From positions 310,001-374,000 of the forward strand of contig AP026132.1 in NCBI GenBank assembly GCA_030295235.1: a stretch of 64,000 nucleotides of DNA, written 5' to 3'. Below the pieces are notes generated by a model, which was given only the letters and a program-made list of their open reading frames with translations, was not told the DNA's origin and searched no databases. How positions within the stretch are numbered: the stretch's first letter is position 1; every line of letters starts with the position of its first letter. This DNA is from Fistulifera solaris (Eukaryota). Below, in pieces: positions 20,918 through 46,195 of this stretch. The translations under genes and the position numbers were made by a program.

Positions 20918-23900
20918 TCAGTCATCGTATTCATCATCGTAGCTGCCATCTTCTTGGCTGTTGTAACTTTGTGATCCTTCTTCATCGTCGCGACTGTAAT
21001 AACTGCCGGATCCTTCTTCGTCGTCATCGTAATGATTTCCTCTGCTACTTTTGCTTCTAGACCCCTCTTCGTAGCTTTTAGAACCATCGTCATCGTAAGA
21101 GCCTTGTTCTCCGTCATCATAGCTTCGAGAGCCCTCTTCATCGTCGTAATAAGATCCTTCACCGTCTTCGTAGCTGCGAGACCCCTCTTCATCGTCGTAT
21201 TGAGATCCTTCGCCTTCTTCGTAGCTGCGAGAGCCCTCTTCATCGTCATAACGAGATCCTTCGCCTTCGTCGTAACTTCGCGAGCCGTCTTCGTCATCGT
21301 AATGAGATCCGTCGCCTTCTTCATAGCTGCGTGAGCCCTCTTCATTGTCGTAATGAGATCCTTCGCCCTCTTCGTAGCTACGAGAGCGCTCTTCATCGTC
21401 GTAACGGGACCCTTCGCCATCCTCGTAGCTGCGAGAGCCTTCTTCACCGTCGTAACGAGATGTTTCGCCATCGTCGTAGCTTCGTGAGCCCTCTTCATCG
21501 TCATAACGAGATCCTTCGCCATCCTCGTAGCTGCGAGAGCCTTCTTCATCGTCGTAGCGAGACCCCTCACCATCATTGTAGCTGCGGGAGCCCTCCTCGT
21601 CATCGTAACGAGATCCTTCGCCATCTTCGTAGCTGCGAGAGCCCTCTTCATCGTCAAAACGAGATCTTTCGGCTTCATCGTAACTCCGCGAGCCATCTTC
21701 ATAACTTCGCGAGCCATCTTCGTCATCGTAACGAGACCCTTCGCCTTCATCGTAGCTGCGAGAGCCCTCTTCGTCGTCATAATGAGACCCTTCGCCCTCG
21801 TCGTAGCTGCGAGAGTTTTCGTCGTCGTAACTCCTGGAATCATCCTGGCCATCATCGTCGTAAGAGCCCTCATCTTTCTGAGAATCGCCTTCTTCGTCGT
21901 AACTGTTGGCATCATCGCTATAACTTGCGGAGTAATCTTCGTCATTGTACTCGTTTTGTTCAAAAAGATCATCGGCAGTTCGTCGAATAGCATCCGCGTC
22001 TTCGTATCCGTAGTCTTTGTCGTCCACAACAGCGCTCCCTTCCTCACTCCTAAAATAGCTAGCCTCCTCACTGGCTTCCTCAGTGCGTGATTGGTCGTAG
22101 CTTCCAGATTGCTCATCGTCATCATACTCATCATCGTGGCTTCTTTCTTCGGAATAGCTGCCTTCGTCTGAATAGCTCCCCTCGTCCGAGTAACTACCTT
22201 CGTCCGAGTAACTGCCTTCATCTGAATAACTACCACTATAGTCTTCATCATCGTATTCATCTCCCATATTGGCCCCCAATGTACTAGCGGCAGCAATCGC
22301 AGCAGACCCATCTGTGCCTCCGGCAGTAAAATTTCGAGCTTCACGCTCGGGGATTCCCCTTGCTTTTGTGCACAGCCTTGCGTGCACGTTGGGTGGCCGA
22401 ACGCGCCGACATGGTTTGAAGAGTGTTGATGAGCTCTGTTTCCCGCCCCGCAAACTGGTCCAGCATGTTATCGATATTGTCGATTTCGTCGGGCACGCAC
22501 TGCTTGACAAGTTCCTCTACTTGCTTTCGATACTTCTCTCTACGTTTCATTTCTTGCGGAGTAAGGTTTGGTTGTGATCGAGAATCTGCTGTTTCGTCGT
22601 CGTCCGCCTGGCTTGATTCATCCTCGTCATCATTAGCCGAATATTGACTTCCATCATCTGTGATTTCGCCATTTCGGGATGTTTCCGCTTTCGTAGGAAC
22701 CGACAAATCATCAAATGCTTCAAAACCTCTAGCCGCTTCCATCACACCGTCCCAATCACCGCGATCGACCATTGCATCGAGATGACGCATATTTTCTGGT
22801 TGCACGGTTGTCGTGCGACTCACACCGTCGGTGCGGGAAAAATTGCCACTTTCATCATAGGTACTAGATTCACTTTCAGTATACTCGTTTTCATCGCTTG
22901 GGTCGGCGTCTTCTGTCGAAACTTCCTGAAAGCCCATGGCGTCAGCTTTCCCCATGCGTCTGTGTCGTTACTAACCCAGCCAAACACATCATCCGATTTC
23001 TTCAATTCGTCAGGGTCATCAAAAGCGTAGTTGGCAACATCTTCAACATTTTCGTCGAAATCTTTTTCATCGACTTGGAAGTCAAAATCCTTGTTGTCAT
23101 CAGAAGCTCCGGCTTTCTTTTTACCAACCAGACCACCGGTAGCTTTACCAACGACACCCAACCCTACGTCGCCGACTGTTTTAGTTCCCTTGATAGCTGT
23201 TTGACCTACTGTCTGCACACCTTTTACCACTTCTCCTCCTACAGTCAAAACACCCTTTTGTACACCTTGCACAAGAGTCCCTCCTAAACCGCCGAAAGCA
23301 TTGAGAACATTGCCAGTGGTCTTGTCCAGTGCACCACGCATACGGGATCGCTCTCGATCTTTTGATTTTTCAGCGGCAAATGTGCCAGTTACCGGGTCCT
23401 CTTCACTTTCCTCGTCGCTATCTGGGACCACAGTGTCAGGTTTGGCAAATAGACCACCATTATCAGAGTCATCAGACTCCTCTTCAAAACCAAAACCATT
23501 TTTTGATTTATTACCCGGTGCCCTCTCAGCTTCAGCGCCATCGTCACTACCATTTTCGGTAGCCTTGGCGGATTTTGTTTTCCCTTTAAAGTTGGAAAGG
23601 CGAGAAGAAATGGTCGAGAAATCCCCGCCCTCTGAAATGAAACGATAAATGCCATAACCTCCTGCCAGAGCTAAAACGATGCAAACACAAATGATGATGA
23701 TAATCTTCATTGGAGAGCCACCACCACCTCCGTTAACGGGCGTCAAAGGCTGATCAGAAGGCGGCGCGGCCGGCGGCGCAGGCGAGGCGTCACGCTTTTT
23801 TATGTCTGCTGTTCCGACAACACTTATCGTCACTGTATCATCAACCTCTTCTAGTAAGCCCTGTAAGGAATTGCCTTTGGTAAGAGCGGCCTGTGCATAC

Positions 23901-26263
23901 TTAGTCCAAGCATCCTGACGATCTTCATTAGCGAAGAGGACATCAAAAGCAGCATAAACAATAATACAAACTGTAGATTGTTCTGTGACCGTCTCCGGAC
24001 AATTCGTATCGACAACATCAAAGAAATCGATGGAGTCTTCAACGAGACCGGTGACTTGTACTCTTCTTTGATAACGCAAGTATCGTGTTGCCTCACCAGC
24101 AGTCGACTCTTTCAACGCTGCGAGCTCTTTAACGACCTGCTTGACAAACTGGTCGTAAGCAGAATCTAAGGCCCGGCGGTTTTTCCCAGATCGTAATGAT
24201 GCGGCACCCAAACCGGCCGAGTTCGCCAATATAAACGCATTGTAGATTGTTTGTACTTTAGGGTCAGCAGGCGAAGCGGTAGGACCAGTAGCCGTGGGCT
24301 CGCCACCAGGAGTTGGCGCTGATGGCGCAGCATCTCCTGAGATAGCTCTTGCGGTAGCTTCGCAGACATCTTCCAAAAACTTTTGCTGTTCTGCAGTGAC
24401 ATTGACTCCTCGAAGTGCACCTCTGATGTTTATAGACAAATCATCTTCATTTCCAGTAGCCAGCGCGAAAAAGTTATCTTTCAAAACTTTCGGAAGATCA
24501 TCAAAAGGATCTGTCAACGCGAATTCTTCGGTGTTTCGACTCAAGAAGCGCACATACTCTGACTGGTCCATTTTGCTGTCGCGGGACAGGTCAGCAATAA
24601 CCATATCCTGTTTACATGACTCAATATCAATCTCAACATCGGTTCCTCCTGGTGAAGCAGTCGGCGTACCCTCGCTATCTCCGGCAGCAGCTTCCGCGAT
24701 TGCTTTTTCCGTAGTGTCACAGACAAATTGAAGATTACTTTGTTGTTCATCTGTTCTTTCAGCATCAGTATTCCCTTCTACAGATATCATGTCACCCGCC
24801 GTGTTGCCGTTGGTGGATGTCAACGACGTAAATGCGTCTTTCAGCTCTTGTGCGAGCCCATCGTAAGTACCATAAAGTGCACGAATATCGATCTCTTCCT
24901 GGGGCAGTCGCGTCAGAAATATGAAATACTCTCTGTCGGACAAAAAACCATCCCGGGTAATATCGGATTGAGAGATCACCGATAAGCAATCTTCGAATGT
25001 AAACAGTTCCGCTGACTCTCCCGGAGAACTCGACGGCATCTCATCTCCACCTCCTGCCGCAGCATTCATCGCTGCTCTTGTATCATCACATATCTTCTGA
25101 ATGGAGCTGTCATCACCGTCCACAGAAAGCATGGTTCCGTCTCCATTGCTAACAACCAATGCATTGTAGCTATCTTGCAATGGCACTGGCAAACCGGCAA
25201 AATTAGCATACTCGCGGAAAAATCCATCTCCCACTCGATCCAGAAACAGAAAGTGTTCTCGTTTGTTCAATTTACCATCACGTGTGATGTCGGAAACCTG
25301 AAGATTGGATTTGCAAAAATCAAAATCAAAAGTGAATTGCCCACCACCTGGTGCCGGTGCAGCGACCGGAGCAGGAGCTGCTACAGGAGCCGGTGCAGCG
25401 ACCGGAGCAGGAGCTGCTACAGGAGCTGGTGCAGCAGCCGGAGCAGGGGCTGTTACAGGAGCTGGTGCAGCAGCCGGAGCAGGGGCTGTTACAGGAGCCG
25501 GTGCAACGACCGGAGCCGGTGCCGTTACCGGTCCGGCCACGGGAGGAGTTTCCCCGTCGCTATTTTGCGCGAAAATACTAGCCACTAACGTTTGCTGGCA
25601 TAAATTTTGAACAAATGCTTTTTGTTCTTCAGTAGCGTCGCGGTGCTGTGTTTTCCCTCCGTACACATCAATCGAACCGACACTCGGTTCCATGAAAAGT
25701 TCAAAGACGGCCTTCACGGGCCCTGGCAAGTCGACAAATGGTGTGGTTAAACCGTACAGCTCTCCCGACAAGCGATCGGCCAAGCGCGTGAACTCCAGCT
25801 CTCGATCTAATCGGTCGTCTCTTCCAATATCCGCCAGCGAGATGGCCAACAAACAATTTGTGCTCGTAAGCTCCAAGTCAGAGCCGCCGATAATCCCCGA
25901 GTAAATACCAGCGCAAGGTCCTGCTGCCGCCGCAACGTCCGTAATGGCCAGTGGGTCCTCGAACGCCTCTTGCAGTTCGGGCGGTAATGCGGCAAATTGT
26001 GCGACGGAGATCCCCGACAGCACTCGGATGGCTTCGACGAATTCTGCTTCGTTTAAGGATCCGCTGGCGTCGCTGTCGGCACCCTTCAATGCATCAAAAC
26101 ACGGAGCATAGGTCGTAGATGGGGGAAGCGGAGCCGCTGCTGCCGCACCGAAGAATGCCGGAAGAAGAAGCCAGGAACGTTTCCTCCGCCTCGAAATCCG
26201 GAGTTCGATGGGTTTGCTCTGCCATCTTCGCCGCCTTTTCTCTTCTGTACATCGCGGTATCAT
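20918..26263 (-). CDS. Giant (about 1780 aa) type-I membrane protein A: Cys-flanked EF-hand-like repeats, PAPVAA linker, SEA-like domain, TM, acidic Tyr-rich repeat tail; frameshifts near 22946 and 22345
   Basis: ORFs 22820-26263, 22341-22955 and 20918-22510 join end to end with continuous composition; TM IIIIICVCIVLALAGGYGIY; homology to the gene at 27573-31822. Confidence 0.75.
21080..21830 (-). repeat. Coding tandem repeat, 51-nt / 17-aa unit (SRSYEDGEGSRYDDEEG), about 13-14 copies
   Basis: Counted directly in the 20918-22510 translation; synonymous variation between copies. Confidence 0.92.
25352..25531 (-). repeat. Coding tandem repeat, 18-nt / 6-aa unit (PVAAPA), about 10 copies
   Basis: PVTAPA PVVAPA PVTAPA PAAAPA ... 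PVAAPA in the 1147-aa ORF. Confidence 0.92.
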
Positions 26264-27572
26264 TATTTCTTACTTCTAGTTTGAATGCTTCTCGTCCGAA
26301 CGAGGCGATGAAATAAATTGGAACTTGCCACAACAGGCAGCAAAAGCCCTTTCTATTACTATCTCTCTTTCAGCAAAATCACTTCTGCATTTTGCGGGGG
26401 AGGTAAAAAGGGGCACTTTTTCAACAAGGAATGGGATTGACACTTTCGAAGAGTGTGTCGGTTGAAACGATTAACCACCGTTTTCAACCAATCAAAAGCC
26501 TAAGCCTCAGTCTTGGTCACTGAATCACGAATTTCAGTACAAGCAACTGATTTTGAGTGCCGGATGTAGTAGTGGGTCTCTACTTTGTTTGTTAGTGTCG
26601 AAATGTCAAAGACATTTGTAAGTACACAATGAACCCCCAAAAGGTCTTTCATTTCTTGGCGAACGGAACGCCATTTTCTTTCATCAAAGGGTCGAATTAG
26701 GCGAGAGACGATGTTTTGGAAGACGTTGGAAGACGATGGGCGCGCACAACATTCCGTTCCATCACAGCAATTACCAGAGGCCTTGCTCTAGCTAAAAACA
26801 CATTAGGGCAGCAACTCGTCGAGTCAAACCGGTAGACCCTGGAGAAAGGTTTTGCACCGACAGATCGACGCCTTAGTTTGACACCACAAATTACAGGTTT
26901 TTATTGAAATAGACATAAAGCTCTAGAGCGAGCAATTAACACGCAATTCATTGCCATAAGCTCGAGACCTACTGGAAGAAAATTGCCTTTTGGTAGATCT
27001 TTTAGAGTCTCACTATTATGCATCCATCAAAGGACTCGCTGGGTTAAATGTTCGCAAAGCACATCTATGTAAATTAAGCTATCTCTAGAGAGGGCATCCA
27101 ATGGGTATTGGAGAGGGTCTTATTCAAAGAAATTTGCACGTTTCCCATCTTGTCGAGACATCTTAGGCAGGAAAGAGTCATAGTATCGTAGCGGTATCAT
27201 CTTCAGCCGCTGGCGTCAACGGCGGAGTTTTTTTCGGTCTTGTCGAAAATTGTGACCCGATTGACTTTTTTGGTTGAAGCACATCGGTATAAGCGCCATA
27301 GTGTGAGTACCACACTTCCAAATATTTAGGCATTTCGACGATTTTTACTAGGCACTCCAAGATTATTGCCCTTCTGGACCACGTCGCACAGTCTAGGGTC
27401 TAGCGACTGTATGGGAAGCTCCGACCAAGATCGAGCTTAAACTGTACATCGTACATTTGCCGAGGAACGACTAAAAACCTGATCTTCTATTCATTCCATC
27501 GTCGTCTTTATGCATGTTTGTTGTTGACATCCTAGAAAATTTACAAGCAAGAAGTTCTAAGACTGCTGCAAA

Positions 27573-30500
27573 ATGCCTTCTACCATGTCGTTCTGGGGTA
27601 AAAAGCGGAAGATCCCGCTTTGCTTATTGCTGTTAGCCCAGCTTTCTCATGCGCAATACATCAGCTGCCGAGAGACGCTGACGAGCGCGAATGGGGATGG
27701 CGACGCTACGTTACAGGCCGCCGAAATTCCAGGATTTGTCTTTCAACTCAGTTCCGGAATCGTGGATGCCGCTTCGGTCGATAGTTTACCTGTGCCTCTG
27801 CAAACCGTGTTCATTTCCCGGGCCAATTCCATCAACTTGCTAGGAATATTGGATCCGACGAATGCGGCGGCAGTTGTCGAATTAGACACGTTTTGTGATG
27901 ATGTCTATAACGCCTTGGGAGAGCATCTGGGGATTACCATAACGCAAAATGCTTGTATTGGAGCTCTCCAGACGGCGGATACCAGTCCAGGGAACGGTCG
28001 GGTCAGTTTCGAGCCGGAATTTCTCGCCTTTACTGCGAGTCTCGCCGGAACGGATTTTGGCGTCACGACGGCCGCCGAGTTGCCGGCCGGCCTGATTCGC
28101 GTCTTTGATGATTTTTCCGGCGGTACGGACGTGAAGAGCTCGGCTGGATTGGAGTATTTGGTTCAATTTTGTCAGCGAACGGCGCTGCAAGCGAAAATCG
28201 AGTTAGACAAACCCGACGTGCCGGCCACGACGGCACCGGCACCGGTGGCTTCCACCAGTCTACCGGTACCTCCAATGGTGGCTCCAACGTTAAGCCCTGT
28301 TGCTGCGTCTCCAATTCCACAGCCAACAACGCCGGCCCCCGTAGCGGTCGACTCGGAAAGTCCAGTAGCAGTGCCGACATCGACCGAATTTGTGCTGACC
28401 GATGACTTTTATGCCAGTTGCTTAACGAGTATGCAAGCATCCGATCAAAATGGAAACAATCTCATGGAAAGTTCGGAATATCCAGTTTTTATTGATGGAA
28501 TTTTGGAGGGCGCATATGCGGAAACACCCTTCGATGAATTAGACCCACTGTTCCAAACGGCTTTCAACGAAAACGCGGTAGTGAGAGAAAGCATCAATAT
28601 ATTTGGGGCAAAGCCAGGAGAGTCACCAGACGCAGATCAAACATCGTATCTACGGCAAGTTTGCTCCGCAGCGGGTCAAGCCGATCTCGATCTCGCTGGT
28701 GGAGAAACGACTCCGGTTCCTGCTCCGGCTGGATCGGAAACAACATCGCCAGCTCCCATGGCGCCAGGATTGGTGAGTCCGGAATGTCAGGCAGCGATTG
28801 AAGTCGGTGGATCATGGTCGCAAGATTCATATGCGCTCTTTGTGCAAAAGCTTGCACCCAGCTTGGACGGTGACTATGAAACGCTTCCTTACTTGCTACA
28901 GGACAACTACAAGTGGATCATGAACGGGGAGGAATCTATAATGATACCCGATACGCCTTATGGCGAGGCATACACTCGCTTCATATGCGACCGAACACAG
29001 AGGCTCATTGACCAGCCTGAAAAGGGTCAAACGATGGAAGAGCAATGTGCGATCGCTTTAAAGGTCGCTTCCAGTGACGGTTCAACTTTATCGCAGGACG
29101 AATACGTGGTCTTTTTTAAATCAGCTCTCAGGATTCGCATGGGAAGGAATACAATTTGACGCGTTAGACTTGCTCTTGCGAGACGTATTTGAGGAAAATG
29201 AAACAGAAGGGAAAGCCGTTGCAAGCTCGAATGAATTCTGCGTAGCGGTATCCCAAGCCCTCGAAGCTACGCGCAGTGACAATGCATTCTACCAACAGTG
29301 CACAATTTCGCTTATAGGGGCTAACACCGATCTCGACAGTAGCGTATCAACAGCGGAGTACGCAGAATTGTTTTCTGCACTTGATGGTGGCACAGATGAC
29401 GCGGCATTTGACGATCTTTCTGACAATGCAAGAGTAAATTATGAACTACTGGCCGAGGATAACGGCATACAAGTGCCAGGTCTCCTTGCACCAAACCGAA
29501 CTCAGGAAGAGTCGGAATCTCTGCGAGGATTGTGCGATAGCATCGAAGCAATCATAAATGTTCCCGACGATAGTGGGAATGCCACTCGCGTGACCGTATT
29601 TAACGCTTTTGTTCTGCAAAATGATTTGGGGTTCACACAGAGAGACATGGAGATAGGAGTACTACGAAATACCCTAGAAAGCGCCTACCGAAACTTTGTA
29701 ACAGCACAAGTGGCGAAGCTGGTCAAGCCCACAGGCGACCGACGGAAGCTCTCGGGTTCTGTCCTACTAGATGACACTATTCGACTGTATCGGTTCGAAG
29801 ACATTCAATGTCCAAGTGGAGCAAGCGGTAGTTGCCAAAGAGCTTATGGCTCATTTGACGTGGAAGCAAACCAGGACAACTCAATTCTCTCTAGTGAATA
29901 CTCATTAGCAACCCAGGCGGCAATCGATGATGGTGCATTACAAGACGAGGTCACCAAACTTGATCCAGATTTTGAGTTGGTCGTACATTCCTCGTCGGAA
30001 GTGTTGCGCCCTGATGAAGGGGTTTACCCTAGTGCTAGTACGGGAGAAAAAGACAACACTGTTCTTGTAAGCGTCTTGACTATTCTTTTCGGGGCCTTAT
30101 TTGGAATGCTCGGTGCAGCTGCAGTGGCCTATTACATTGTGCGGAATAACCTTCCTCCACTAGGAACTGAGACGAACGCAAGGAAGACAGACCCGGAGTT
30201 GGCTTTGTTTGATCATTTTGACACGAACGATAATGAGCAGCCAGAAGCGCCCACAGATGATCCTTATGGGAACCTTGCCGTGTTTAGCAAAACAACTCGA
30301 AGTGCAAGCAACAGGGATGCATCCGAGCGGAGCCAAAGTGAGCAATCTGAAGAGACCGGGTTTGATCGATATGCCCTTAGCGGCAAGGGAGAATAATAAT
30401 TTTAATTTTCCCGCTTCCCAAGCTACGGCTGACGAGCAAAGTGATGATGAAGAGAGTATTAACAGTGACGCCATGTTTCAAAAGGAAGAGATTACTTGGA

Positions 30501-31822
30501 GCAACAACTCTCCAATCAGATCTCCGGTAGATCAACGCGGGAGGGAAGGGGAGGCAGATCCACGAATCACCAGCCCTAACCAAAATCAGTTTGAAAATGG
30601 AATTGACGACCATTCGGACAACGGCGGCGACGATCTCGAACCGATGCAATATGGAGCGTTAAAGCAACCTACCTCGCCTTTACGTCAACAAGCAGGGTTG
30701 CAACAGGAAGAATCGGATCAAGCGGGATCATCAGCATTGAACGCATCGCATTCCAATTCTGAATACGAGCTTCAAGATCTTGAGGACGAAATTCATGATG
30801 TTGATACGATGCAAATGACATCACGACCCGATAACGACGAAGAATATTCGGTGGAAGTTCAAGAAGAAGAATTTTCGGAGGAAATTCAAGAGGAAGAATT
30901 ATCCGAAGAAGTACAAGAGGAAGAGTTCTCGGAGGAAGTGGTTGAGGAAGTGGTCAGCGAGTCTGAAGTCGACGAGGAAGAGACCGACGACGAGGGCGCG
31001 ACTGAGGACGAACGAGGCACCGCTGCAGATGATGTACAAAGTGGCGGAAGCAGTCAAGACCAAGCTGATATGGAAGACGAGAGCGAAGAAGGAGAAGACA
31101 ACGAAGAAGAAAAAAGCGAACCCGAAGAAAGCGAGGAACCCGAAGATGATGATGAAAGTGACGGTGACACGGAAAACGATAACGCGGAAGCAAAGCCTCC
31201 TTACCGAGATGAGATTGCGGCCTTGATGCAACAGGTCATGCCCGACGAAATGGAAAACCTTGACGCAATGCTCGAACAATTTTCTGGAAGGGAAGATGAA
31301 CTACTTGAGACTCTTGAAAACATGGTAAATGCCGGCAGTGATGACGAAGATGATGAAGATTACTCAGAAGAAGGCGAGGACGCAGAGCAAAGCGAAGATG
31401 ATGAAGAGGAAGATGATGACGAGGATCAGGAAAGAGAATTGGGGTCAGAGGAAGAAGAGGAACGTGAAGATGAAGAGGAGGAGGAGGAAGAGGAGGAGAA
31501 CAGTAAGGCAGCCGCGAGCGAAAGTGAAGAAGAAGAAAGCGACGCTGCTGAAAGCGAAGGAGAAGAGACCGCATCCGGCGCAAGCGAAGAAGAAGACGAA
31601 TCTGAATCCGAAGCAGCCGCAAGTGAAGAAGAAGAATCCGAATCGGAAGGAGCTGAAAGCGAAGAAGAGGAACAATCAGAGGCAGCCAGCGAAGAGGAGT
31701 CGGAAGCAGAAGAAAGTGAGGAAGAGGAATCGGAAGAAGCCAGCGAAAGTGAATCCGAGGAAGAAACGGAAGCTCCAGAAGCGAGTGATAGCGATGACAG
31801 CGATGACAGTGACAGCAGTTAA
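27573..31822 (+). CDS. Giant (about 1410 aa) type-I membrane protein B, paralog of A: signal peptide, Cys-flanked EF-hand-like repeats, SEA-like domain, TM, Glu/Ser/Asp-rich tail; frameshifts near 29115 and 30390
   Basis: Signal peptide ...LCLLLLAQLSHA; TM VLVSVLTILFGALFGMLGAAAVAYYIV; blocks shared with A (TVFNAFVLQN/TIYNAFILAN, ESAYRNFV/DSAYDQFV, MPDEMENLDAMLEQFSGREDEL/VPDEIDNIDNMLDQFAGRETEL). Confidence 0.78.
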
Positions 31823-32069
31823 TAAAAGGGGAAGTAGAAGTTTCCCTAGTATGTAAAATTACGATTTCCATAGAGATTTCTTTTATTATCTTTTAACTCT
31901 CATGCCAGCCTTAATTCTCATTGTTTGGTACCCTAGACATTTTGTGTCACGTAAATCGAGTCCCGAATCATTGCCGGACCTTTTATTAACGATAGAAATT
32001 TCGTCATTGTTTATCGTCAATAACTCATGGCTTTCTCTTTCATTCATGTAAAAAGACGCAGGAGCGACC

Positions 32070-35844: not shown

Positions 35845-36262
35845 CAGGACCTCTATATTATTGCAAATTGCATCAATAATGAATGCTTGTTCTTGTCATC
35901 GTTTCAGTCGCACAAATAAAAATTTACAGCGTTCGGCGATGTGACGGAGTTGCGTGTCGTCTTTCCTATCTAATGCAATGCACGCTTCCGCGACGCGTGA
36001 ATGAGCTTAAGTAGTTAGTGGTATTTACAGCACACAGTCTTTAATTAATGTCAATACTTAGATCAACATATTTACATTAAAACACATACAAACCTTACAT
36101 ATAAGGCCTTTATGTACAACGGTACTTTCATGACGGCCCTGTAAAAACTCCAACAGCAAAGTACACGTTTTATAGCTAGGTTTGCGTGTGCACCCAGTTC
36201 ACGACTAACCAATTTACAGAAGCTAGGGAAGCTAACTATGGTTATTTTCAATTTCATAACAA

Positions 36263-38416
36263 TCAGGCTAAGCCGGTCTGATATCCATTTTGAGCATACT
36301 CGGAATGGTCCTTACTTTTCTTATCAAACCTTCGCACCTTCCGGAATCCTCGATTCACAATCTTGCATAAGTGACCGCAATATTCAGAATGAGTGTGAAA
36401 GAACTTACTCATCCCTTCCTTGCCGTGATCCGTGCGCCCATGGACATTCTTTCGGCAAGTAAATCCGCCAGGATTGTAGTAGTGTATGACAGGATCTGAA
36501 AACATCAAAACGTTGTTCGCTTCATCGTAGACACCTTGAAGATCGCAAACGAGCCGCTTTCTACTCGAGGCCCGATAGCTAAAGTGTGAAAACGCCTGTG
36601 CCACCTCAAAAGGACTAAAGACAATCGCACTCTTTTCAGATGGGACACCCAGTGCCTCCTTTTCATCGTCCGAGGAGTCTTCTTCTTCCTCGTTACCTTC
36701 TTCGATAATGTCACCATCAAAAGAGCAACACGAGTCATATTGACCGCCGCGTGACGGAGACTTTCTTGAGAGAAAACAGGCGCTTCCTTCATCCCATCGA
36801 CAAAACCGTTGTTGCAATTCCATTTGTGCCACTTGGTATGGTCAAGTTTGTCTTCGACCAACACACTCAAAACACCGAGTTCGGGGTCGTCCAACTCATA
36901 AATCGAGCAGTCCAGGAAACTGACAGTCGGCGTACGCTGATCAACACGATACGATTCCTTCAACTTGTCATTGAATTCCTTCGCAAGTCGTCGAGCCAAT
37001 TGCTGAGTTTTGCAGAAAGAAGCTGTATATTCTTTCCTAGCCTTCTCATCGGAACAATCGACATCGAGGATCAAGCGGCTTTCTTTTGCTACCATTGCCT
37101 TTCCAACGATCGTCCGGCAATCAGCGGCAAGCTCAAAGAATCGATAGGCAAATCTTTCAGCTCCCTCACCAAAGGACCTTTGGCGAACGCAACGTAACGA
37201 GCGTGCGGATACTGCAACGCTGCTTTTTCGTACTTGTGCATTCTTCGGTTTTTATTTACACCTTCCGACTCGATCCATTCCTCGTAAGTCTTCCGTTTCA
37301 CTAAATCCAATGAATAGATCCAAAAGTCGTCATCAGAGACTCTCGAAATAGCCTGCCCTGCTTTACTGCGAGACTCTCTGAGAATACTTCGGACCTGTCG
37401 TTGTTTCTTCGACTTTGCATCGGTCAACTCCAGTTGGGTCGACGTGATGGATGTTGCAACAGAAGTAAAGACATCTCCGAGTGCAGAAGAGGTCATCGAT
37501 GGCAGACAGAAGTCAGCATGAGCCCCGTAATCATCTGCGGCGTCTACCATGCGTTTCAGCATGTCAAAGTCGTCGTAAGCTCCCATCGCGATCGCCTTGA
37601 AGGTGAGCCGCCGCCCAAATTCTTGGCCAAGTCGCCAACAGTGTTTTCTATGATTTGGTAGCACAATTCCTTGTCTAAACCATAGCCGGTTGCAGCATCA
37701 GAGGGTCTTCCATCGGATAGAGAAGTGAGTGAAACGGCACACGAAGCATTCGGGTTCCGAAGAAGTAAAGTCTCTGCCATTCTGAGGCTGGGAAGGAAGG
37801 GTCCGTGCCCACGGGGTGCAACGAGTGTTTCACTGTATAGCTTAACAAGTTTGTTGTACAAAACCCAAGAGCATGGTTCCTCTTCAAAGATCGCATTTGC
37901 GGTTTCTCCCAAGGTGACAACGGAAATGACATCCGTGAGACCGCCTTCTCCTGTTTCCAGTCGACTCGCTAAGAAGTCCAAAGCAATGGAGACCCAGACT
38001 GCCGCTAGACGGGTTCGTGTGCCCCATACATCCGCTTGCTTCATACTTCCCGAGGTATCCACCACGAGAACTGAATTCGAAGTCCAGCAATCGAGATCGT
38101 CCTGAATCTTTCGACGAGCTTTCGTGTACTCCGCGTGCATCTCCTCCGTCAAAGGAACTTCTTCCAGCTCCAGTGGCTTTGCGTAGCAGGTGACCTCTTC
38201 GCCGGTCACTTCATTCACAATGTAAGTTAGGTCCTGGTAGACGTACATGGCGGCTTCGTCACCGTTCGGTCGAGGATGAGTGCCGTAACGGACGCCGTAC
38301 TTTCGGGCCGCTTGGAGATCTTTCTTATCGATTCCTCGCTGCTTTCTTCGCAATCTCCCGTGCTCCGTTTCCACGAACGTTATCGCTGAAGTGTAGATGG
38401 AATCGGCGCTCAACAT
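36263..38416 (-). CDS. Alpha-kinase with vWA domain and N-terminal DUF4258-like domain; frameshifts near 37620, 37165 and 36720
   Basis: vWA MIDAS VDTSGSM...LSDGRP; alpha-kinase motifs VAKE, KWNCNNG, QAFSHFSY, LVCDLQGV, FSDPVIH, GRTDHGKEGMSKFFHTH and C..LC. Confidence 0.87.
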
Positions 38417-38824
38417 GGTATCGCGGTTTTAGGATGAAGAACAAATCAGGATGGTAGGCTTCCTGCTTGCGTATATAATGAGAGCGCCGCATGCTGGATT
38501 TTCAAGGAGGAAAATGCCGAAAAAAACATGGCAAAATGGATCTTTTGACGAGGAACAAGTTCTATTGGTCCGTGAAATTTGAGTTGTTCACTATGAACAA
38601 GAAGTTCACCTTCATCTTGTTCTTTCTTTTGAAAGGTGCCCGCAAAACGCAAAAATATTCTCCGCCGCATCGCGTGCCGTACAAATTCTACGTACTTCTA
38701 CGGAAATCCGGGTTTGTTTGTGGGCGAATCGCGAAGAACGAGCGCACGAAGAATCACAGCATTGCTAGGGAGATGCATAAAATTAACCAGACGTTTTCAC
38801 ATTAATTTTTAAAATTAATTGCTA

Positions 38825-40913
38825 TCATTCCATAGTGACGGTTCGAATGATGGTTAACTTCCGCGATGGATTGTTGCTCTTCTTCGATATCAATTTGGAT
38901 ACACGAATGGCCGTCATACTGCGCACATCTTCATCGTCGACGGCCACGAGTTTGTCACCGACTTGTATTTGATCCGCAATCACCGATGTGTCTTTCACGG
39001 CATGTACCACCGGTGCACCATCGTCGGGTGTGTCAATCACCACACCCAATTTCCCGGCGGGAGCAATAATGTCTATCACTTGCTCCTGGATGCCACTGTC
39101 ACGAAGTTGCGATTCGGCTCCCAAGGCAGCTAATGCGGCTGTATTGAGAGTCCCCGCGGTCAATCGAGTTGTATCGCCCATAGTACCGCCGGCACTGGAA
39201 ACTACAGAGGTATCACCGCCTCCGTAAAGCTTGGAGTAGTCGTAATCGACCGTGGCAACACTAGAATGACCGTTCAGTAAACAACAAGTTAGCAATACAA
39301 ATCATCTTGGAAGACGTAATAGACTTACCTTTGATCGCCGTAGCCAACATCGAGGATTTTGCTCTCGAATGATTTTTGTTTGGGCGGCACATACGGATCT
39401 TCCATTAATGACAAGTCTTCTTCGCTGGGACTGATAATGAAATGAGGAGACACTTCCGACTGATTGTCACGCTGATCACGTTGTTCCACACCCACACTGC
39501 CATCACCACTTCCTCGAACGAAACCGTAACCGACGTAGGCACAGACCAACAGCACGGCAGCACCTGCCGCTATAATACCGATTAAAACACCCATCGACAA
39601 GCCACTGTCATCGTCGTCACTGCCTCCGTCTCCTTCTTCATCGGGTGTAATGTCTTCACCAAGTATGCTGGGTACTGCCAAAGGCAAAACAAGCTCCCCC
39701 ATATTGGCGAATTCGGTTCGCAACAATTCACCGTATTCCCGGTTCGCGGCCTCGTCATTAAAGGGCAACAAGGCCACGACCTCCGGATCCGCAGTGTCAT
39801 CGGTAGCACCATACTCCAATGTTTGGTTGTACAGTATGGAATTGTCTTGGTCCTGTCGAACAAACGTAATGGCGCTCACCATGGATTCTTGCAAGCGTCG
39901 ACGCCCATTACTGACAAAATAACCTTCAAACCATTCGGCGGTCACACGTTCCCACATGTCAATCTCGTCGTCTTCGAGACGACCACCGCCTCCAAGGGCA
40001 ACCGAATATTCATCAAACGGGCCTCGACGGGTTCGGTGGTAGCGGCCGCACTGGGTGCCAAGGATGTCACTGCGATGCTGGGTACCGCCGACGGTGCTTC
40101 ACTGGAGGCGAGTACCGTGGGTGCTTGACTGAGGACGACGCTCGGACTTTCACTCGCCGCTACCGTGGGCACAGACGACGGGGCCGTCGTATTGCGCACC
40201 GTCGGCTGCAGGGACGTTGTCGGTGCCTCCGTGGGAGCAAACGTGGGTGCCCGTGTTTGACCGGGCAGCAGTGGTACCGCAATCGGTACTTTTAAATTTT
40301 CCCAGCCTTGAAATGTCAAATTCAACGCGGTCGCGTATTGCGCATTCCCTTCCGGTGTCGTCAACGGATACACGGCATAATATCCCGGCGTCTGCGTCCC
40401 ATTGAGCGACGTATAGGTGAGTTGCTGTGAGTAATTGAACGTAGTAACGATGACTTCGTTCCGCAACACACTGTCCTGCGACAAAAAGGAAATGACGGTC
40501 GTAAAGTTGCGAATGCCCACGTCGTTTTCCGCATAAAATTGCTGGAAAAAGTTGCGTGTGACGTTTTCCCACAGCGCATAGCGTGTTTCGTCTTCAATGA
40601 GTGGAGGAACATTTTCGAGTTGCAAGGTAATTCCGGAAATGGTCACATTGACGGGGAACGATTGCGACACGGGTGGCGGACTGGGAAGGGTGATCGGAGG
40701 TGCGGCCGTCGGTGGCAGCGACGTCAAGGGAGGGTCGGTTGAGGAATTGGTGGGAATGGGAGAAAGCGGATTCGTCGTAGGAGAAAGCACCGGGAATGTG
40801 GTTGTGTTTGTTGTATTGGTCGTGATGGTAGTATTTGTAGGGCCGGTAGTATTGGATGTTTGTGCGATGACGACCGGCATCCAGGAGAGCAAGAATAGAT
40901 ACCGTACTTTCAT
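38825..40913 (-). CDS. PDZ-TM paralog 3: signal peptide, Pro/Thr stalk, two SEA-like domains, TM, DYDY motif, PDZ; frameshift near 39985; intron 39261-39328
   Basis: MKVRYLFLLSWMPVVIA signal peptide; TM GVLIGIIAAGAAVLLVCAYVGY; splice gives GYGDQS|VATVDYDYSKLYG; PDZ APAGKLGVVIDTPDDGAPVVHAVKDTS. Confidence 0.85.
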
Positions 40914-41958
40914 GTTTCCTATCTGTCGCTTTTTACAAATAAATAGCGCTAATTTGCTTCTGCTTCGTTAAATCAAGCAAATGGTGGCTTTTTGTCTTGC
41001 AAAACAATCTAACGATCACTTTGTTGGTGATTGTTTAGTTGCCGTTTGAGTCGTCGATGTCAATAAAAGGAGGACGATAGGACGATGGCATTGAATTCGG
41101 GCGGTGAGATTCGTTGCAATTCTTTCGAGTACAAATGTTGCGTCAACGGAAACGATTGTACTGTCGAGCGAAGAATTTAAATCATGTGCCCGTAAATCTG
41201 GAGTCCCGCCGGTATCCTCCAACGGAAATTTCCACCTCAGTCGTTGTTCGATGGAAGAGGGGACCATCCTGGTACCTGTACGACAAATATCTTAATCTTG
41301 CTAGGTGTTGAATGTTGGAGGCATTCTGAGCATAGTTGAGCATTGAACTGTCATTTGTCGAGAGGTTGTTACTTTACACGGTGATGCAACCGGTATCACT
41401 TTAGAAGCTTTTTGTCTCTTAGAACGATGCTGCTACGTCGGAAGATACATACATTCTCTCGTAATTGGTATTCGCTAAGAAACTTTGTCAGAACATGTTG
41501 TCAACAAAAACGTTTCTCCTTACGACTGACTTGACTTCTTTTATAAAAAATAAAGACTAGACTAGTTGATCCCATCTCATGTTCTATTACTCCCAATCTC
41601 GTTTTCAGCAGGACGAAAACGATGGGAAACACTCGACTTCATGGAACCGTGATGTGCGATGCCAGCGTGGACGTGTGGATAGGCGCGCGTCCGATCCCGC
41701 ATGTCCAATTTCTCCGAGGACTTTTTTACTTAGCAAAGACTTTAATGACAATAGCCAAAAGAGTACGCGACCTTTCGAATCGGAGTATCGTCGTTTCAGC
41801 ACCGTGCGCAACGCCATGTTGCTCACGATTCACGGACGAAAAATAATGCGATCGTAGCCAATAAGCGAAAATAACAAGGTTCATTCATTCATCTTGCGAG
41901 TTCCGAGTTGAATAAAAAGAGAGGAATAAACAGAAAATTTAACTTTACAGTATTCGCA

Positions 41959-43259
41959 ATGCTAATGAAAGTCCTTCTCTCCGTCGCTTGGATATTACCC
42001 GCGGTCAATTCGCAATTCACGGCCTCACCGACGCCACCGGATGTGGTCGTCGAGACCGAAGCACCCGTCGCAGCCCCGACATTGCAACCAACGGTCGGTG
42101 TCATTGCCACCGAACAACCCACACTACCTCTCAGTACACCGGAACCGACACAATTGCCGACGACAGCTCCCATAGCCGTTCCGGTCACGGTTCCGGTCGC
42201 CGTCCCCGTGTCTCCACCACCCACAGCCGCCCCGATTGTATTGCCCGTGGCCGTTCCAACACCGCCTCCGGTGGTGGCTCCGGTGCTGGTAGCGACTCCT
42301 GCTCCGACCTTGTTTCCCACTCCGGACGTTGTGATTGTCGAGACGCCGTCACCGACCGGTTCGCCCGTTGCGACGCCGATTGCCACGACGCTGTCCCCGA
42401 CCGTACGACAGGCCATCGAAACGTCTTCTCCCACTTCGACGTCCGATTCCGGTAATATCAATCCTCCACCCACCAACGAGGAAGATGACGAGTTATTGAG
42501 TTTACCGGCCTGGATTGGAATTGGGGTCGGTGGCTTGATCTTGTTGGGAGCGATTGTCTTTGTTGCCCTGCGAGGCGGGGGCAACCAGAGTGGTGCCAGC
42601 GTACCCGCCAGTCGTCACACCAAAGAGACGCGCATGTCCTCCCAACCCGAAGTCGAAATTCAAATCACCAATGATGACGATATTTCGACCATTGGATATC
42701 CCACCGTGGCGACGCGTTCGTATCGGGGCGACCAACAAAGGTGAGTCAATGGAGCGATCGATTTTTTCGAGTACTCGGTCCTGTTGTGTCTCTCATCCTG
42801 CATAATTTTCTGTTTAACAGTCTCCCAACGATCGATTACGATTACACGAGATCTTACGGAGCCGGTCAGGACGGATCGGTGGTTTCCAGTGCCGCCGGGA
42901 CCATGGGCGATACCGTGACCCCATCGGTGACGACCGCTCTGTTGAATCGGATGAGTGATACACGAGCGCCCTCGGAACGATCCTCCAAATCGACGCGGGT
43001 GGTGGAAATTGTGGCGCCCGCGGGGAAATTGGGGGTCGTCTTAGATGCGTCCGACGATCCGGAAGATCCGATTGGCTGTCCCGTCGTGCATACCGTCAAG
43101 GAGAATTCTCCCTTAATTGGTCAATTGCAAGTTGGGGATAAATTGATTGCGCTCGATGATGAAGATGTCCGTGGTATGACGGCCATGCAAGTCTCGAAAT
43201 TGATTTCCATGAAGAGTGCCAATCCGCGAAGGAAGTTTACCGTTCTGCGTCCTTTATAG
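41959..43259 (+). CDS. PDZ-TM paralog 4: signal peptide, Pro/Thr/Val mucin stalk only, TM, DYDY motif, PDZ; intron 42741-42820
   Basis: Intact reading frame; TM WIGIGVGGLILLGAIVFVAL; splice gives GDQQS|LPTIDYDYTRSYG; PDZ APAGKLGVVLD...VGDKLIALDDEDV. Confidence 0.9.
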
Positions 43260-43453
43260 TTACAATGTAATCGATGAAAACGTTAAAAGTATTCCGTAAT
43301 AATAACACAGAAAGTCAGCGACTCTAGACTACCAGGTAGCAAATATAATTTAAGTTAATTTGTACGGAGTACTATGTTCAAGTTCATGATTAATTAGCGT
43401 CGCCGAGCGAATTAGAGAACACTTTCGTCCGGAAACAAGGCGATACCAAAATA

Positions 43454-44389
43454 TCATGCCACGGGAAGATGTTCCAAGACATCGTCTCGAAAGGGAAGAT
43501 AAATTCGGGCCACAGCACCTTCATCCTGTGATGATGACAATGTGACATTGCCACCAAAATGTTGCATCATGAGACGACTGGCCGACAAGCCGACACCCAA
43601 ACTGCTCATGGGACTGCGGACCGCCGCGTACGATTGTTGTTCGTCCAATCGATCCCATCGTCGGCCGGCCGATGAATATCCCCACGCAAACAAGTTGTCA
43701 GAATCTGGCAATCCTATGCCATGATCTTGAAGTGTCACGCAGATCGCATCGTCGTCGGACGAAAGGGTGATTTGCACCGGGGGTGGATCACGGGAGTGGC
43801 GCTGCAAAGTCGCATGAAAGGTATTTTTGAGCAATTCGACCAATGTATGATGGACCCACGGTAATACAAGTGTAAGGGGCTTTGAAGGATTAGCGCGCTG
43901 TAGGTGCACTTCGGGCGCCATCATCCAATGGGACTCACAGACTTGTTGTGCTTGCGAAATGGCTGGATCCAGAAGATCAGATGCATTCTCAATGGTTGTG
44001 ATGGCACCGGCATCCTTATTTTTGTATAATTTGACGTAATGATCGCACAACAATTGTATACTATACCGAACGCGCAATATATCGTTCTTCTCGTCCGACT
44101 CGAGTTTTAAATCGACAAGCCGTTCCAAAGTGGTGGCATGACGATCTCGAATTTGTTCCAATGTTTTGCTAACGATATCTTGATCGGCACTATTCCATCG
44201 TTGAAGAACAGGAGACGACAAGAGTTGTCGACACAATTGTTCCGTATCGCGATGCAAATAGTGTAAATGCGAGTCGACGAGACGGGTTTGTTGCCAGGCC
44301 AGACGGTCCGCTACGTGTTGCAAGACAGTCTCAGCGGTCGAGCTGTTGATTTTCAAGTTCGCTAGAGATCGCAGCGTCCAACGTTTCAT
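43454..44389 (-). CDS. Pyruvate/branched-chain ketoacid dehydrogenase kinase-like protein (GHKL ATPase fold)
   Basis: N-box ELLKN, G1 DHGIG, F-box FAWGYSS, G2 SLGVGL, followed by MMQHFGG. Confidence 0.8.
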   Translation of the reverse strand: MKRWTLRSLANLKINSSTAETVLQHVADRLAWQQTRLVDSHLHYLHRDTEQLCRQLLSSPVLQRWNSADQDIVSKTLEQIRDRHATTLERLVDLKLESDEKNDILRVRYSIQLLCDHYVKLYKNKDAGAITTIENASDLLDPAISQAQQVCESHWMMAPEVHLQRANPSKPLTLVLPWVHHTLVELLKNTFHATLQRHSRDPPPVQITLSSDDDAICVTLQDHGIGLPDSDNLFAWGYSSAGRRWDRLDEQQSYAAVRSPMSSLGVGLSASRLMMQHFGGNVTLSSSQDEGAVARIYLPFRDDVLEHLPVA

Positions 44390-44753
44390 GTCGTGTTTGA
44401 ATACAATATTGCAGATTGAGTGAAAAGGACAGCAGCATCACAAGGTGAACGAAAGGCTGCAAGAAAAAGCAAAACGTTTTCGTTTTGTCGTTTCTTCGAG
44501 GACCGACGGACCGGTACTCACACTTAGCATGTCACGACTAATCCAAAACCGCACTCCCACTTTCATGAGATACTGAAACTTCGTTTGTATAAACGACTGA
44601 GAAGCCGTTGATTGTCTCTCTTTTATACGGCGGGACTGATTTGGACCGGTTTTCTTTCATCTTTCATCGTTTCATTTCTGTCAAAAAGATCCACGCCATG
44701 AGTCGTGTGTCTAAGGAAATGCAGTCCACGTTATCCTCACAAAAACAATCAGC

Positions 44754-46195
44754 ATGCAATCAATGCAAGTTGTCACGTTGCTCTTGTTGTTGGCTGGCAT
44801 GGCCACCGCGACGCCTTCGCCGACCGCCCCTTTCACGCCAAACGAGGACCCGACATTCGCACCAACATCCTCCTTGACGTTGTGGGACAAAGTGAGACCT
44901 GTTGCACCAGTGCCAGCACCGGTCAAGCCACCGACACTCTCACCCACGACGACCCCCAAGACGGTGTCACCCTCCATGGCCCCCACGATGTCACCGAGCC
45001 ATGCTCCTGTGTCTCTCCCCTCCGATTTTCCTTCCTTGTCTCCGACCGCGTCTACCAACGAACCCTCCACGGCCCCCGTCGCAACTCCCACGAAGCAGCC
45101 GACAAATGGTACTTTTATCACTTCCGTCGAAGTGACGGGCTTGCAATTGAAGCTCGTGGATGCGGGGACGTTGCTCGAGAAAACATGGATGGAAAGTCGC
45201 GACGGAAGCGTTTTACAACGAATATTATGAGGACATTGAATGCGAAGTGACCTTTGTGCGATCGGAGAACAGCGAAGACCCGAAAGTCAACACCATTACG
45301 TACGATCTCCTCTTGCAGTCCGAGTTCTTTGCGCTCAACAATCCGATGCAATACGCGCTGAAACCCTTTCGAAATGAAGCCGCGAATTTGCAGTACGGGA
45401 ACGATTTGCGCACTTTGCTCAACTTTGAACGCCTCACTATCCCTCTGGCGGTTCCGACTCGCCTCACCGACGATTCCGTTCAACCGCAAAAGAACCTAAT
45501 CGAAAAACTGGGATTGCATGCAATTTTGGGGATTGTTGCGGCGGCTTTATTGGTTGCATTTTTGTTGCTGTGCTGGTGCAAGCGTGCGCGTCGTCAACAA
45601 AACAAAGCGTCCGAGGCGCCCATGTCGACATTTCGAATTTCTTCTGATGATGATATTTCCACCATTGGACCCATCGATATTGTGGATAGCGAAAAGGAGA
45701 AAGGTAGGTGTTCGAGTGTTTGTGGCGAAGACAAGTTCAACCTTTTCTGATCTGTATCTTTCTTCATTCTTTAGCATTCATTCCGGAGACGATGACTATT
45801 CAAAGGGAGTCGATGGCCGCAATTTTGGTCGAGCAATTCTTTCGAATATAAGTCGAAGAATGTGCATGGGTGGCTCTGGCAATAGCGCCGAAGAGTCGCG
45901 CGATGACGAGGAAGTAGTAGATTACACGGCCGGCGACTGGATGGAGATTGTCGTGCCTCCCGGCAAGCTGGGTATTATCATCAACACTCCCGACGACGGT
46001 CCTCCGGTGATCCACACAGTGAAAGAAACGTCGGCTGTTTTGCATCAAATTCATGTCGGCGACAAACTAATTGCCATTGACGATGAAGATGTGCAAGCAA
46101 TGACCGCCATTCAGGTATCGCAGATCATTTCCAATAAAAGCTCCGATGCTAGGAAGTTTACCATTGTGCGACCGTACGATACTGTGACCGTTTAA
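44754..46195 (+). CDS. PDZ-TM paralog 5: signal peptide, Pro/Thr/Ser stalk, one SEA-like domain, TM, PDZ; frameshifts near 45180 and 45695; intron 45704-45774
   Basis: Signal peptide VVTLLLLLAGMATA; TM AILGIVAAALLVAFLLLCWC; DDDISTIG; PDZ VPPGKLGIIINTPDDGPPVIHTVKETS...VGDKLIAIDDEDV. Confidence 0.8.

Follow-up and report, generated by a model that had tools for sequence, protein, structure and literature searches.

A gene cluster in the diatom Fistulifera solaris encoding two families of type-I membrane proteins with a juxtamembrane domain of predicted SEA/MAD-like fold

Results

Gene content of the cluster

The window analyzed here is a 64,000-nucleotide stretch of contig AP026132.1 of Fistulifera solaris (assembly GCA_030295235.1, positions 310,001 to 374,000 of the forward strand), and its subject is the gene cluster at 20918-46195 (coordinates are those of the window throughout). 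According to the listing of open reading frames (ORFs) and Pfam the window is eukaryotic nuclear DNA, with housekeeping genes surrounding the cluster. An earlier note made from the letters alone had placed two EF-hand-like-repeat and four PDZ-tailed membrane proteins together with a vWA/alpha-kinase in this interval, and all of these are found there. The six membrane proteins are, as proposed, of type I and belong to two uncharacterized families, called A (A1 and A2, with EF-hand-like repeats) and B (D, E, F, and G, with PDZ tails) in the following (Table 1). An undescribed, diatom-wide juxtamembrane domain occurs in family B, and according to structure models it has a SEA/MAD-like fold in common with the juxtamembrane domain of family A.

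Family B proteins consist of a signal peptide, a stalk with N-x-S/T sequons that is rich in Pro, Thr, and Ser, none to two copies of the SEA/MAD-like domain, a transmembrane (TM) helix with basic residues behind it, an acidic tail and, at the C-terminus, a PDZ domain. F has no copy of the SEA/MAD-like domain, G has one and D and E have two each, and there are 14 sequons in D and 12 in E. The Pro/Thr stalks described earlier are real, with a Pro/Thr/Ser (PTS) fraction of 0.29-0.43. The membrane-proximal domain had been given as about 110 amino acids (aa) long; it is present in most of the six proteins, but its length is closer to 125-140 aa and F does without it.

Table 1. Coordinates of the genes of the cluster, their parts and neighboring features
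Feature	Position	Strand	Remarks
A1	20918-26263	-	~1780 aa, EF-hand-repeat type-I protein; ORF pieces
A1 repeat R1	25889-26116	-
A1 repeat R2	25574-25870	-
A1 repeat R3	25064-25330	-
A1 repeat R4	24695-25003	-
A1 repeat R5	24338-24631	-
A1 juxtamembrane SEA/MAD-like domain	23789-24262	-	basic loop RYLRYQRRVQ after helix 1
A1 tail tandem repeat	21120-21702	-	51 nt (17 aa), 11.4 copies
A2	27573-31822	+	A1 paralog, divergently transcribed from A1; six EF-like repeats, TM helix, acidic tail
A2 juxtamembrane domain	~29581-30015
orf32070	32070-32678	+	small secreted-type ORF, unrelated to cluster families; 202 aa, signal-peptide-like start, between A2 and YjgF gene, without Pfam family
YjgF/RidA-type gene	32791-33390	-	unrelated to cluster families
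D	33560-35844	-	PDZ-tailed type-I protein, family B; last exon DYDY and PDZ
D1	35101-35532		SEA/MAD-like domain
D2	34492-34920		SEA/MAD-like domain
D TM helix	~34345-34420
D intron	34130-34200
vWA/alpha-kinase	36263-38416	-	cytosolic, Pfam
E	38825-40913	-	PDZ-tailed type-I protein, family B; TM helix, DYDY and PDZ
E1	40245-40667		SEA/MAD-like domain
E2	39643-39993		SEA/MAD-like domain
E intron	39261-39328
F	41959-43259	+	PDZ-tailed type-I protein, family B; signal peptide, PT-rich stalk (PTS 0.43), TM helix, DYDY and PDZ
F intron	42739-42818
HATPase_c gene	43454-44389	-	unrelated, between F and G; Pfam HATPase_c E 1.5e-11
G	44754-46195	+	PDZ-tailed type-I protein, family B; signal peptide, PT stalk, TM helix, PDZ
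G SEA/MAD-like domain	45184-45480
G candidate intron	within 45704-45788
H	4197-6193	-	weaker fifth PDZ gene outside cluster; Cys-rich N-terminal part, RRSL region, TM helix, divergent PDZ-like C-terminus
rDNA unit	9731-15529	-	complete (Rfam)
18S	13747-15529	-	Rfam
5.8S	13355-13508	-	Rfam
28S	9731-12968	-	Rfam
Second-copy contigs	27714-28030, 34412-35223, 36482-36868, 38976-39244		in DNA-like and RNA-like runs

Distribution and fold of the juxtamembrane domain

A HMMER search with a profile of five domain copies of the window against 1.84 billion representative proteins gave family B domain matches in 292 proteins at E<=1e-3, of which 90 remained at E<=1e-10 and 7 at E<=1e-30. Position and copy number were counted in 152 proteins, i.e., the best 150 of the 292 matches (including P0003) together with P0001 and P0002. 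The domain occurs once in 120 of these, twice in 30 and three times in 2, and in 121 of them the last copy is immediately followed by a hydrophobic segment taken as a TM helix (median gap 11 aa). The domains of D, E, G, A1, and A2 likewise lie directly before the TM helix. Partner domains were scanned with Pfam in 105 of the 149 new matches (E<=1e-4), of which 12 contained FG-GAP_2 and 2 each contained fasciclin, PT repeats, and PDZ. FG-GAP and fasciclin are adhesion-type modules and so support the adhesion-type character suggested in the earlier note; from position and partner domains together the domain is regarded as a general juxtamembrane module of adhesion-type proteins. The low number of PDZ domains is explained by gene models that read through into the intron and end in ...GDQR, as 18 of the 152 database relatives do.

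An AlphaFold2 (AF2) model of D2, made from a 70-row alignment, reached a predicted local distance difference test (pLDDT) value of 92.7 and a predicted template modeling (pTM) score of 0.87. The order of elements in the model is strand-helix-strand-strand-helix(-strand), with strands at residues 2-16, 56-72, and 78-92 and helices at 24-40 and 99-120. In the structural comparison (VIA) the highest scores were obtained with MAD12 of PCDH15 (Z 8.0, 7.8, and 7.5), followed by the SEA domains of TMPRSS6 (7.1), Gpr126 (7.0), and MUC16 (6.5 and 6.4), MAD28 of CDH23 (6.2), CELSR1 (6.1), a TMPRSS SEA domain (5.5), dystroglycan (5.2), and IA-2 (4.6). Between 90 and 111 residues were aligned at a root-mean-square deviation (rmsd) of 3.1-4.7, and SEA/MAD chains make up most of the top 16 rows. 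The domain was filed under the SEA/MAD-like fold class because its top matches are juxtamembrane SEA or MAD domains of single-pass glycoproteins, i.e., domains from the same context.

The RxLQ loop

The loop between helix 1 and strand 2 was analyzed in an alignment of 162 domain copies, in which D1 and D2 are entered twice (as window copies and as P0001). RxL is present in this loop in 78 of the 162 copies, and RRxL in 39. The density of RxL is 98 per 3215 aa within the loop as opposed to 76 per 20484 aa elsewhere, which is an 8-fold enrichment, and the motif is followed by Q in 56 of 89 cases. Loops with the motif have a median length of 24 aa and those without it of 13 aa. In the D2 model the loop (residues 41-55), which contains LRRLQ, has a mean pLDDT of only 57. 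Among 19 multi-domain proteins, 8 have RxL in the membrane-proximal copy alone, 2 have it in both copies, 9 lack it in both, and none has it in the distal copy alone; of 115 single-domain proteins, 63 have it. The RRxL-like sites announced for the window proteins hold for D2, E2, A2, and H, but A1 has RRVQ in place of such a site and G has none.

RRIL and RRNL occur as spacers in silaffin precursors. RXL sites are described, in the available part of one study, as processing sites of diatom biosilica-associated proteins cut by a protease that is unknown there (PMC5647440). The RxLQ loop is probably a processing site of this diatom RXL type. It is conceivable that the proteins are themselves silicalemma proteins or biosilica precursors, which would be situated in the membrane of the silica deposition vesicle and have the ectodomain cut at RxL into the frustule, with the PDZ tail directed to the cytoskeleton. 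In agreement with this, RXL processing is a known process and the type-I proteins SAP1, SAP3, and Sin1 lose their membrane anchor (PMC5647440; 10.1101/2021.09.18.460806, as far as available), while FG-GAP, fasciclin, and 18 single-TM proteins are listed in silica proteomes in the accessible part of the latter preprint (10.1101/2021.09.18.460806) and FG-GAP and fasciclin are fused to the juxtamembrane domain in relatives. On the other hand, the SAPs are Ser-rich and have a 28-aa cytoplasmic motif and no PDZ domain in what is available of their description (PMC5647440), by which description only they are set apart here; the word PDZ is absent from the available text of the silica-proteome preprint (10.1101/2021.09.18.460806); and the stalks, by reading of their sequences, do not have the Lys/Ser-rich composition of silaffins. 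A biosilica role is accordingly considered rather unlikely, at about one chance in five by our own estimate.

The PDZ-tailed proteins and gene H

The PDZ domains of E (29.1 bits), F (26.5 bits), and G (30.8 bits) score above the Pfam PF00595 cut-off of 23.2 bits. That of D is below the cut-off (PDZ_6, 18 bits), yet the PDZ exon of D is 45% identical to that of E, and among the PDZ exons of all four family B genes identity is 45-56%. The DYDY motif that had been ascribed to the cytosolic tails stands for D, E, and F, in which it opens the last exon. A fifth PDZ-TM gene had been pointed out near 4.2-6.1 kb and is confirmed as H, but its PDZ is weak: it scores 16.7 bits, below the cut-off, and is 21% identical to that of E, with 16 invariant columns in the five-sequence PDZ alignment. 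A profile of the five PDZ domains matched the PDZ domains of GRIP (E 7e-6), GIPC, and InaD in the PDB. The ectodomain of H (4739-6193, - strand) has no sequence link to the family B domain profile (hhalign probability 1.7%). At its start there is a six-Cys stretch that by eye resembles a small toxin-type or ShK-like knot, for which Pfam gave nothing at E<=5.

E is the most conserved member of family B, and environmental PDZ exons are all nearest to E, with up to 88% identity. A full-length relative of E with a PDZ domain is P0008 (687 aa), and G has relatives in P0014 and P0041. The look-alikes of P0008 in the Atlas are two clusters of "hypothetical proteins", one with 187 members (score 0.96, PDZ on 18%) and one with 60 members (score 0.95, PDZ on 32%), and the commonest phylum is Bacillariophyta in both. 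In a quick tree of PDZ exons 39 of 64 inner branches are open and D, F, and G are on long branches, so that the duplications are left undated by it. Our literature search returned no description of PDZ-tailed or SEA-like type-I diatom membrane proteins apart from the preprint on MRP1, a mating protein of Pseudo-nitzschia multistriata for which, in the part available, a SEA-like fold is noted (10.64898/2026.03.25.714164).

The combination of stalk, fold, and PDZ tail also brings raphid gliding into consideration, where the proteins would hold secreted mucilage strands with their ectodomains and engage the actomyosin of the raphe through their PDZ tails. In favor of this, a mucin-like architecture is combined with an adaptor domain in the cytosol, and among the closest folds are the membrane-adjacent domains of PCDH15 and CDH23, the cadherins of the tip link. 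These cadherins bind a PDZ scaffold linked to myosin, and in animals this scaffold is a separate protein. The known trail proteins are without membrane anchors in the available part of their description (10.1101/2023.03.06.531300), and the gliding linker is for this reason still missing. No tie of the family to the raphe was found, however, the Atlas giving the taxon no more closely than as Bacillariophyta, and a role in gliding is regarded as improbable.

The EF-hand-like-repeat proteins

A1 has a signal-like N-terminus, five Cys-bracketed EF-hand-like repeats, a PA-rich linker, the SEA/MAD-like domain, a TM helix and a cytosolic tail of ~850 aa that consists of 20% D, 19% E, 19% S, and 12% Y. 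It is 32% identical (E 1.1e-112) to P0004, a single ORF of 1458 aa along which the three frame pieces of A1 all align in order. Because of this colinearity the frame breaks of A1 near 22950 and 22340 are taken to be indels and not introns. P0004 was the only relative of family A in word-index protein searches and the Atlas gave no usable match, which does not in itself make the family rare. A1 and A2 are 26% identical over 292 aa (BLASTP, E 4e-14) and share a cytosolic motif of 44 aa with 48% identity (E 3e-13). This motif (..VPDE..N.D.ML.QF.GRE.EL..TL..M), which appears helical, is located at 22400-22540 and ~31190-31325 and is also found in P0004; it retrieved only chance-level Pfam rows at E<=5 and no PDB sequence at E<=1.

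The repeats of A1 and A2 align as 5-6 units of ~85-100 aa with an invariant Cys pair and the consensus AD..DG.L...EY. The PS00018 loop pattern is matched once in A1 (residue 63), once in A2 and twice in P0004, and the other repeats deviate from it; Pfam EF-hand_1 scores 18.9 bits, below its cut-off of 25.4. An AF2 model of R5 and the juxtamembrane region of A1 was made from an 11-row alignment. R5 has a pLDDT of ~90 in the model, and VIA matched it to the centrin N-domain (Z 6.7, rmsd 2.8, 71 residues aligned), a troponin-C sensor (6.5), EhCaBP5 (6.4), and CBP40 (6.1). The juxtamembrane part has the order strand-helix-loop-strand-strand-helix-strand as in D2, again with a loop of low confidence (model residues 176-193), and its VIA matches were MAD12 of PCDH15 (Z 7.5 and 7.0), CELSR1 (7.0), the SEA domains of MUC16 (6.9) and TMPRSS (6.3), Gpr126 (6.3), and dystroglycan (6.2). 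The juxtamembrane domains of families A and B thus appear in the models to be the same kind of module, linked by fold only.

Assembly errors, transcription, and a second copy

Contigs of four public runs (X1-X4) were aligned to positions 26250-46249 of the window. All four differ from the window by one base at 29112, 30387, 34223, 34411, 37619, and 39990, and X1 alone differs by one base also at 36718, 38650, 41408, 44682, and 45180. Over these 20 kb the window differs from the public reads by at least 17 single-base indels, mostly in homopolymers, and the resulting frame changes occur within conserved features, e.g., the TM helix of D. P0001, the annotated copy of D, is identical to it over the 480-aa query (100%) and reads through the frame break of D, although it is without the PDZ exon. 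The ORF breaks are homopolymer indels of the assembly that are corrected by reads, and the genes are not pseudogenes. Genes will consequently be split in any annotation that is based on the raw assembly.

Cover by X1 is even over all 30 bins, which is what a run of DNA would give. X2-X4 are restricted to genic parts and have splice joints and poly(A)/poly(T) loose ends. They are probably transcript assemblies, judged by cover and splice features, as the run records do not say RNA. The intron of F is seen as a joint from 42738 to 42819 in X2 and X3, which skips 80 nt with GT..AG ends, and that of E as a joint from 39260 to 39329 in X2, which skips 68 nt with CT..AC ends. The intron of D is marked by matching loose ends at 34129 and 34201, and poly(A)/poly(T) loose ends are found at 31830 (A2; X3 and X4) and 33531 (D). 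In D, E, and F the intron has the identical position, just 5' of the exon for DYDY and PDZ. Genic-only cover, the joints in E and F, and the poly(A) ends at A2 and D indicate that A2, D, E, and F are transcribed and spliced.

A second class of contigs is 90-95% alike to the window and covers A2, D, the kinase gene, and E (15 of 92 contigs in X1, 14 of 44 in X2, 11 of 42 in X3, and 7 of 32 in X4). Together with P0002, which is 84% identical to D, these contigs indicate that at least A2, D, the kinase gene, and E are present twice in the organism, the second copy having diverged. Both diverged copies of the region seem to be expressed.

The alpha-kinase and conservation of linkage

The predicted domains of the kinase gene make it one of vWKa-type architecture. 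Pfam Alpha_kinase (PF02816) scores 68.6 and 41.9 bits on two frame pieces (cut-off 21.3), and VWA_2 scores 20.7 bits, below the cut-off of 27; the gene is split into four frame pieces in the assembly, with read-detected indels at 36718 and 37619. The layout of vWA and alpha-kinase is known, as free-standing, from Dictyostelium vWKa and from Tetrahymena in the available part of PMC2827801.

The earlier note had interpreted the cluster as a co-located functional system around the alpha-kinase, with conserved linkage as a check. A PDZ alignment was searched against metagenome contigs, which gave 149 relatives of which 78 loci were kept, and neighboring genes were sought by tblastn at E<=0.05. Of the 78 environmental loci, 69 have a SEA/MAD-like domain 5' of the PDZ exon and in the same orientation; the architecture of SEA-like domain, TM helix, and PDZ is thus conserved. 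An alpha-kinase, vWA, A1, A2, or HATPase gene was found in none of the 78 at the same threshold, of which 26 extend 3 kb or more downstream of the PDZ exon and 13 extend 5 kb or more upstream. In one of these (L057) the order PDZ gene - YjgF - GT3 is as in the window and the GT3 gene, of the Glycos_transf_3 type, is 74% identical to window positions 18087-19232, but only 556 bp separate YjgF and GT3, and the 13.5-kb block with LRR, A1, A2, and orf32070 is absent. Tandem PDZ-tailed genes occur elsewhere, with three in L017/L018 and two in L062, and because such arrays recur the cluster of the window looks like a local duplication. Within the limits of environmental contigs the proposed system thus reduces to local duplications, as conserved linkage was not seen, and the clustering of the kinase with the PDZ-tailed genes is probably incidental.

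An alternative is that the cluster is a co-evolved module in which the EF-hand giants and the PDZ proteins couple a Ca2+/glycan matrix to scaffolds while the kinase phosphorylates the Ser and Tyr residues of the tails. Six membrane-protein genes and a kinase do lie inside 25 kb, the tails contain many Ser, Tyr, and acidic residues, both families have the juxtamembrane fold type in common, and at least A2, D, the kinase gene, and E are also present as a 90-95%-alike second copy in the reads. This is nevertheless improbable for several reasons. First, none of the 78 related loci has an alpha-kinase, vWA, or family A gene, and L057 has kept the flanking genes without the A1/A2 block. Second, an unrelated HATPase kinase, YjgF, and other genes are interspersed. 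Third, contig depths, which are a poor measure of expression, fall for D, E, and F and rise for A2 from X2 to X4, and the kinase is almost uncovered in these three runs. Fourth, the vWA-alpha-kinase architecture is a known free-standing type in what is available of PMC2827801.

Of the other genes in the region, the HATPase_c gene can be read from its sequence as a candidate PDK/BCKDK-type kinase. A YjgF/RidA-type gene downstream of a PDZ-tailed gene, as at D, is also found in L003 (4501-5156), L005 (14945-15574), and L057 (13001-15286). The ribosomal DNA (rDNA) unit lies amid protein-coding genes, between gene H and the GT3 gene, and separates H from the cluster. It may stand alone or form the edge of an array.

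Discussion

Probable local duplication of putative surface glycoprotein genes

The reading that we favor, with a probability of about 0.55, is local duplication, by which D, E, F, and G are old paralogs from a diatom-wide family of mucin-like type-I surface glycoproteins, with the divergently transcribed pair A1/A2 beside them. That these proteins serve as surface mucin-type linkers or receptors is held with the same, slightly better than even, confidence and is deduced from their architecture. The vWA/alpha-kinase and the HATPase-type kinase look like bystanders in the array.

A number of observations weigh against this. SEA domains that cleave themselves have a motif of the type G-S-[VI]-V-V in the turn between strands 2 and 3. 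The corresponding pattern G[ST][VI][VI][VIA] is present in none of the 162 domain copies and GS[VI]V in one, and no Pfam family, including SEA (PF01390), matched the domain in the window ORFs (E<=0.01) or in the 105 of 149 relatives scanned (E<=1e-4). For these two reasons the domain was not filed as a member of Pfam SEA. The fold matches with Z 5.5-8.0 are middling for the tool, as Z below 8 can mean a common arrangement, and Foldseek gave no match to the PDB at E<=1e-3 for the D2 or the A1 model (with D2 the MUC16-type SEA entry 1ivz is at rank 16). Only one of the five A1 models reached a pLDDT of 79.2, with the other four near 57, and hhalign gave a probability of 0.1% for the juxtamembrane domains of A against B, i.e., no sequence support for homology. 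About half of the domain copies do not have RxL. FG-GAP proteins in the silica proteome of T. pseudonana, in the available part of 10.1101/2021.09.18.460806, leave room for a biosilica role. Finally, the 78 environmental loci were picked by likeness to E, many are short and some are near-duplicates, and the absence of linkage may come down to ~15 independent long contigs.

A possible mode of action

If the PDZ-tailed proteins are surface glycoproteins, their mode of action can be outlined from the order of their parts. The predicted signal peptide would lead to type-I insertion, and the stalk, with its N-x-S/T sequons and abundant Pro and Thr, may be heavily glycosylated and form an extended extracellular or lumenal arm. 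The SEA-like domain exposes, in the model, a long disordered basic RxLQ loop, where processing of the RXL type would probably take place. A cut at RxLQ could leave two halves held together non-covalently, by analogy with cleaved SEA domains, and allow shedding or force-dependent release. At the other end the C-terminal PDZ domain, which is of canonical type, would dock the C-terminal peptide of a putative cortical or cytoskeletal partner. In A1 and A2 the EF-hand pair repeats probably bind Ca2+ outside the cell and may stiffen the ectodomain.

It is tempting to speculate that the PDZ-tailed proteins are transmembrane couplers between a secreted glycan or mucilage layer, such as the wall or raphe strands, and cortical actomyosin, with the RxLQ-cut SEA-like domain as a force-sensitive release comparable to cleaved mucin SEA domains, but the odds are long. 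If it were true, most adhesion-type receptors of diatoms would have this module as their common stalk, including those with FG-GAP, fasciclin, or EF-repeat parts. For adhesion, gliding, and the shaping of the wall, diatoms need membrane proteins that link material outside the cell with the cytoskeleton, of which few are known. What is new here is an unannotated domain without a Pfam model, which appears as a common stalk of diatom type-I proteins with mucin, FG-GAP, fasciclin, and EF-hand parts, and a subfamily that fuses this SEA/MAD-like domain across the membrane to a cytosolic PDZ domain. The domain profile can be used for re-annotating diatom surface proteomes.

Comparison with known systems

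The kinase gene resembles the vWKa-type kinases in having an N-terminal vWA-like part and a C-terminal alpha-kinase (PMC2827801, available in part), and differs in that its vWA part is below the Pfam cut-off and in that no functional tie to the neighboring genes was found. The model of R5 of A1 resembles EF-hand pair domains such as the centrin N-domain, troponin C, CBP40, and EH domains (Z 5.5-6.7, rmsd 2.5-3.1, 66-74 residues). Unlike these, most loops of A1 and A2 are off the Ca2+-binding consensus, and the units are Cys-bracketed and located on the extracellular side.

SAP1-3 and Silicanin-1 are similar in type-I topology, RXL-type sites, and a proposed coupling of lumen and cytosol, as far as their available description goes (PMC5647440). 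The SAPs are, however, small proteins rich in Ser, with a conserved motif of 28 aa on the cytoplasmic side, and neither a SEA-like nor a PDZ domain is described for them in the available part of that study (PMC5647440), the comparison being one of descriptions only.

The best structural matches are MAD12 of PCDH15, MAD28 of CDH23, and CELSR1, which likewise stand directly before the TM helix of single-pass, adhesion-type proteins. Sequence identity to these is 4-13%, and the diatom ectodomain is a mucin stalk or a row of EF-hand repeats in place of cadherin repeats, with the PDZ domain fused to the same protein.

The SEA domains of MUC16, MUC1, TMPRSS6, and enteropeptidase are alike in being a ferredoxin-like fold of ~120 aa by the membrane under a glycosylated Pro/Thr/Ser stalk, with Z 6.4-7.1 and 103-111 residues aligned for the D2 model and Z 5.9-6.9 and 100-123 residues for the A1 model. 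The diatom domain differs from them in its candidate cut site, which is the basic RxLQ loop between helix 1 and strand 2 and not the turn between strands 2 and 3, and the tail of the diatom protein carries a PDZ domain of its own.

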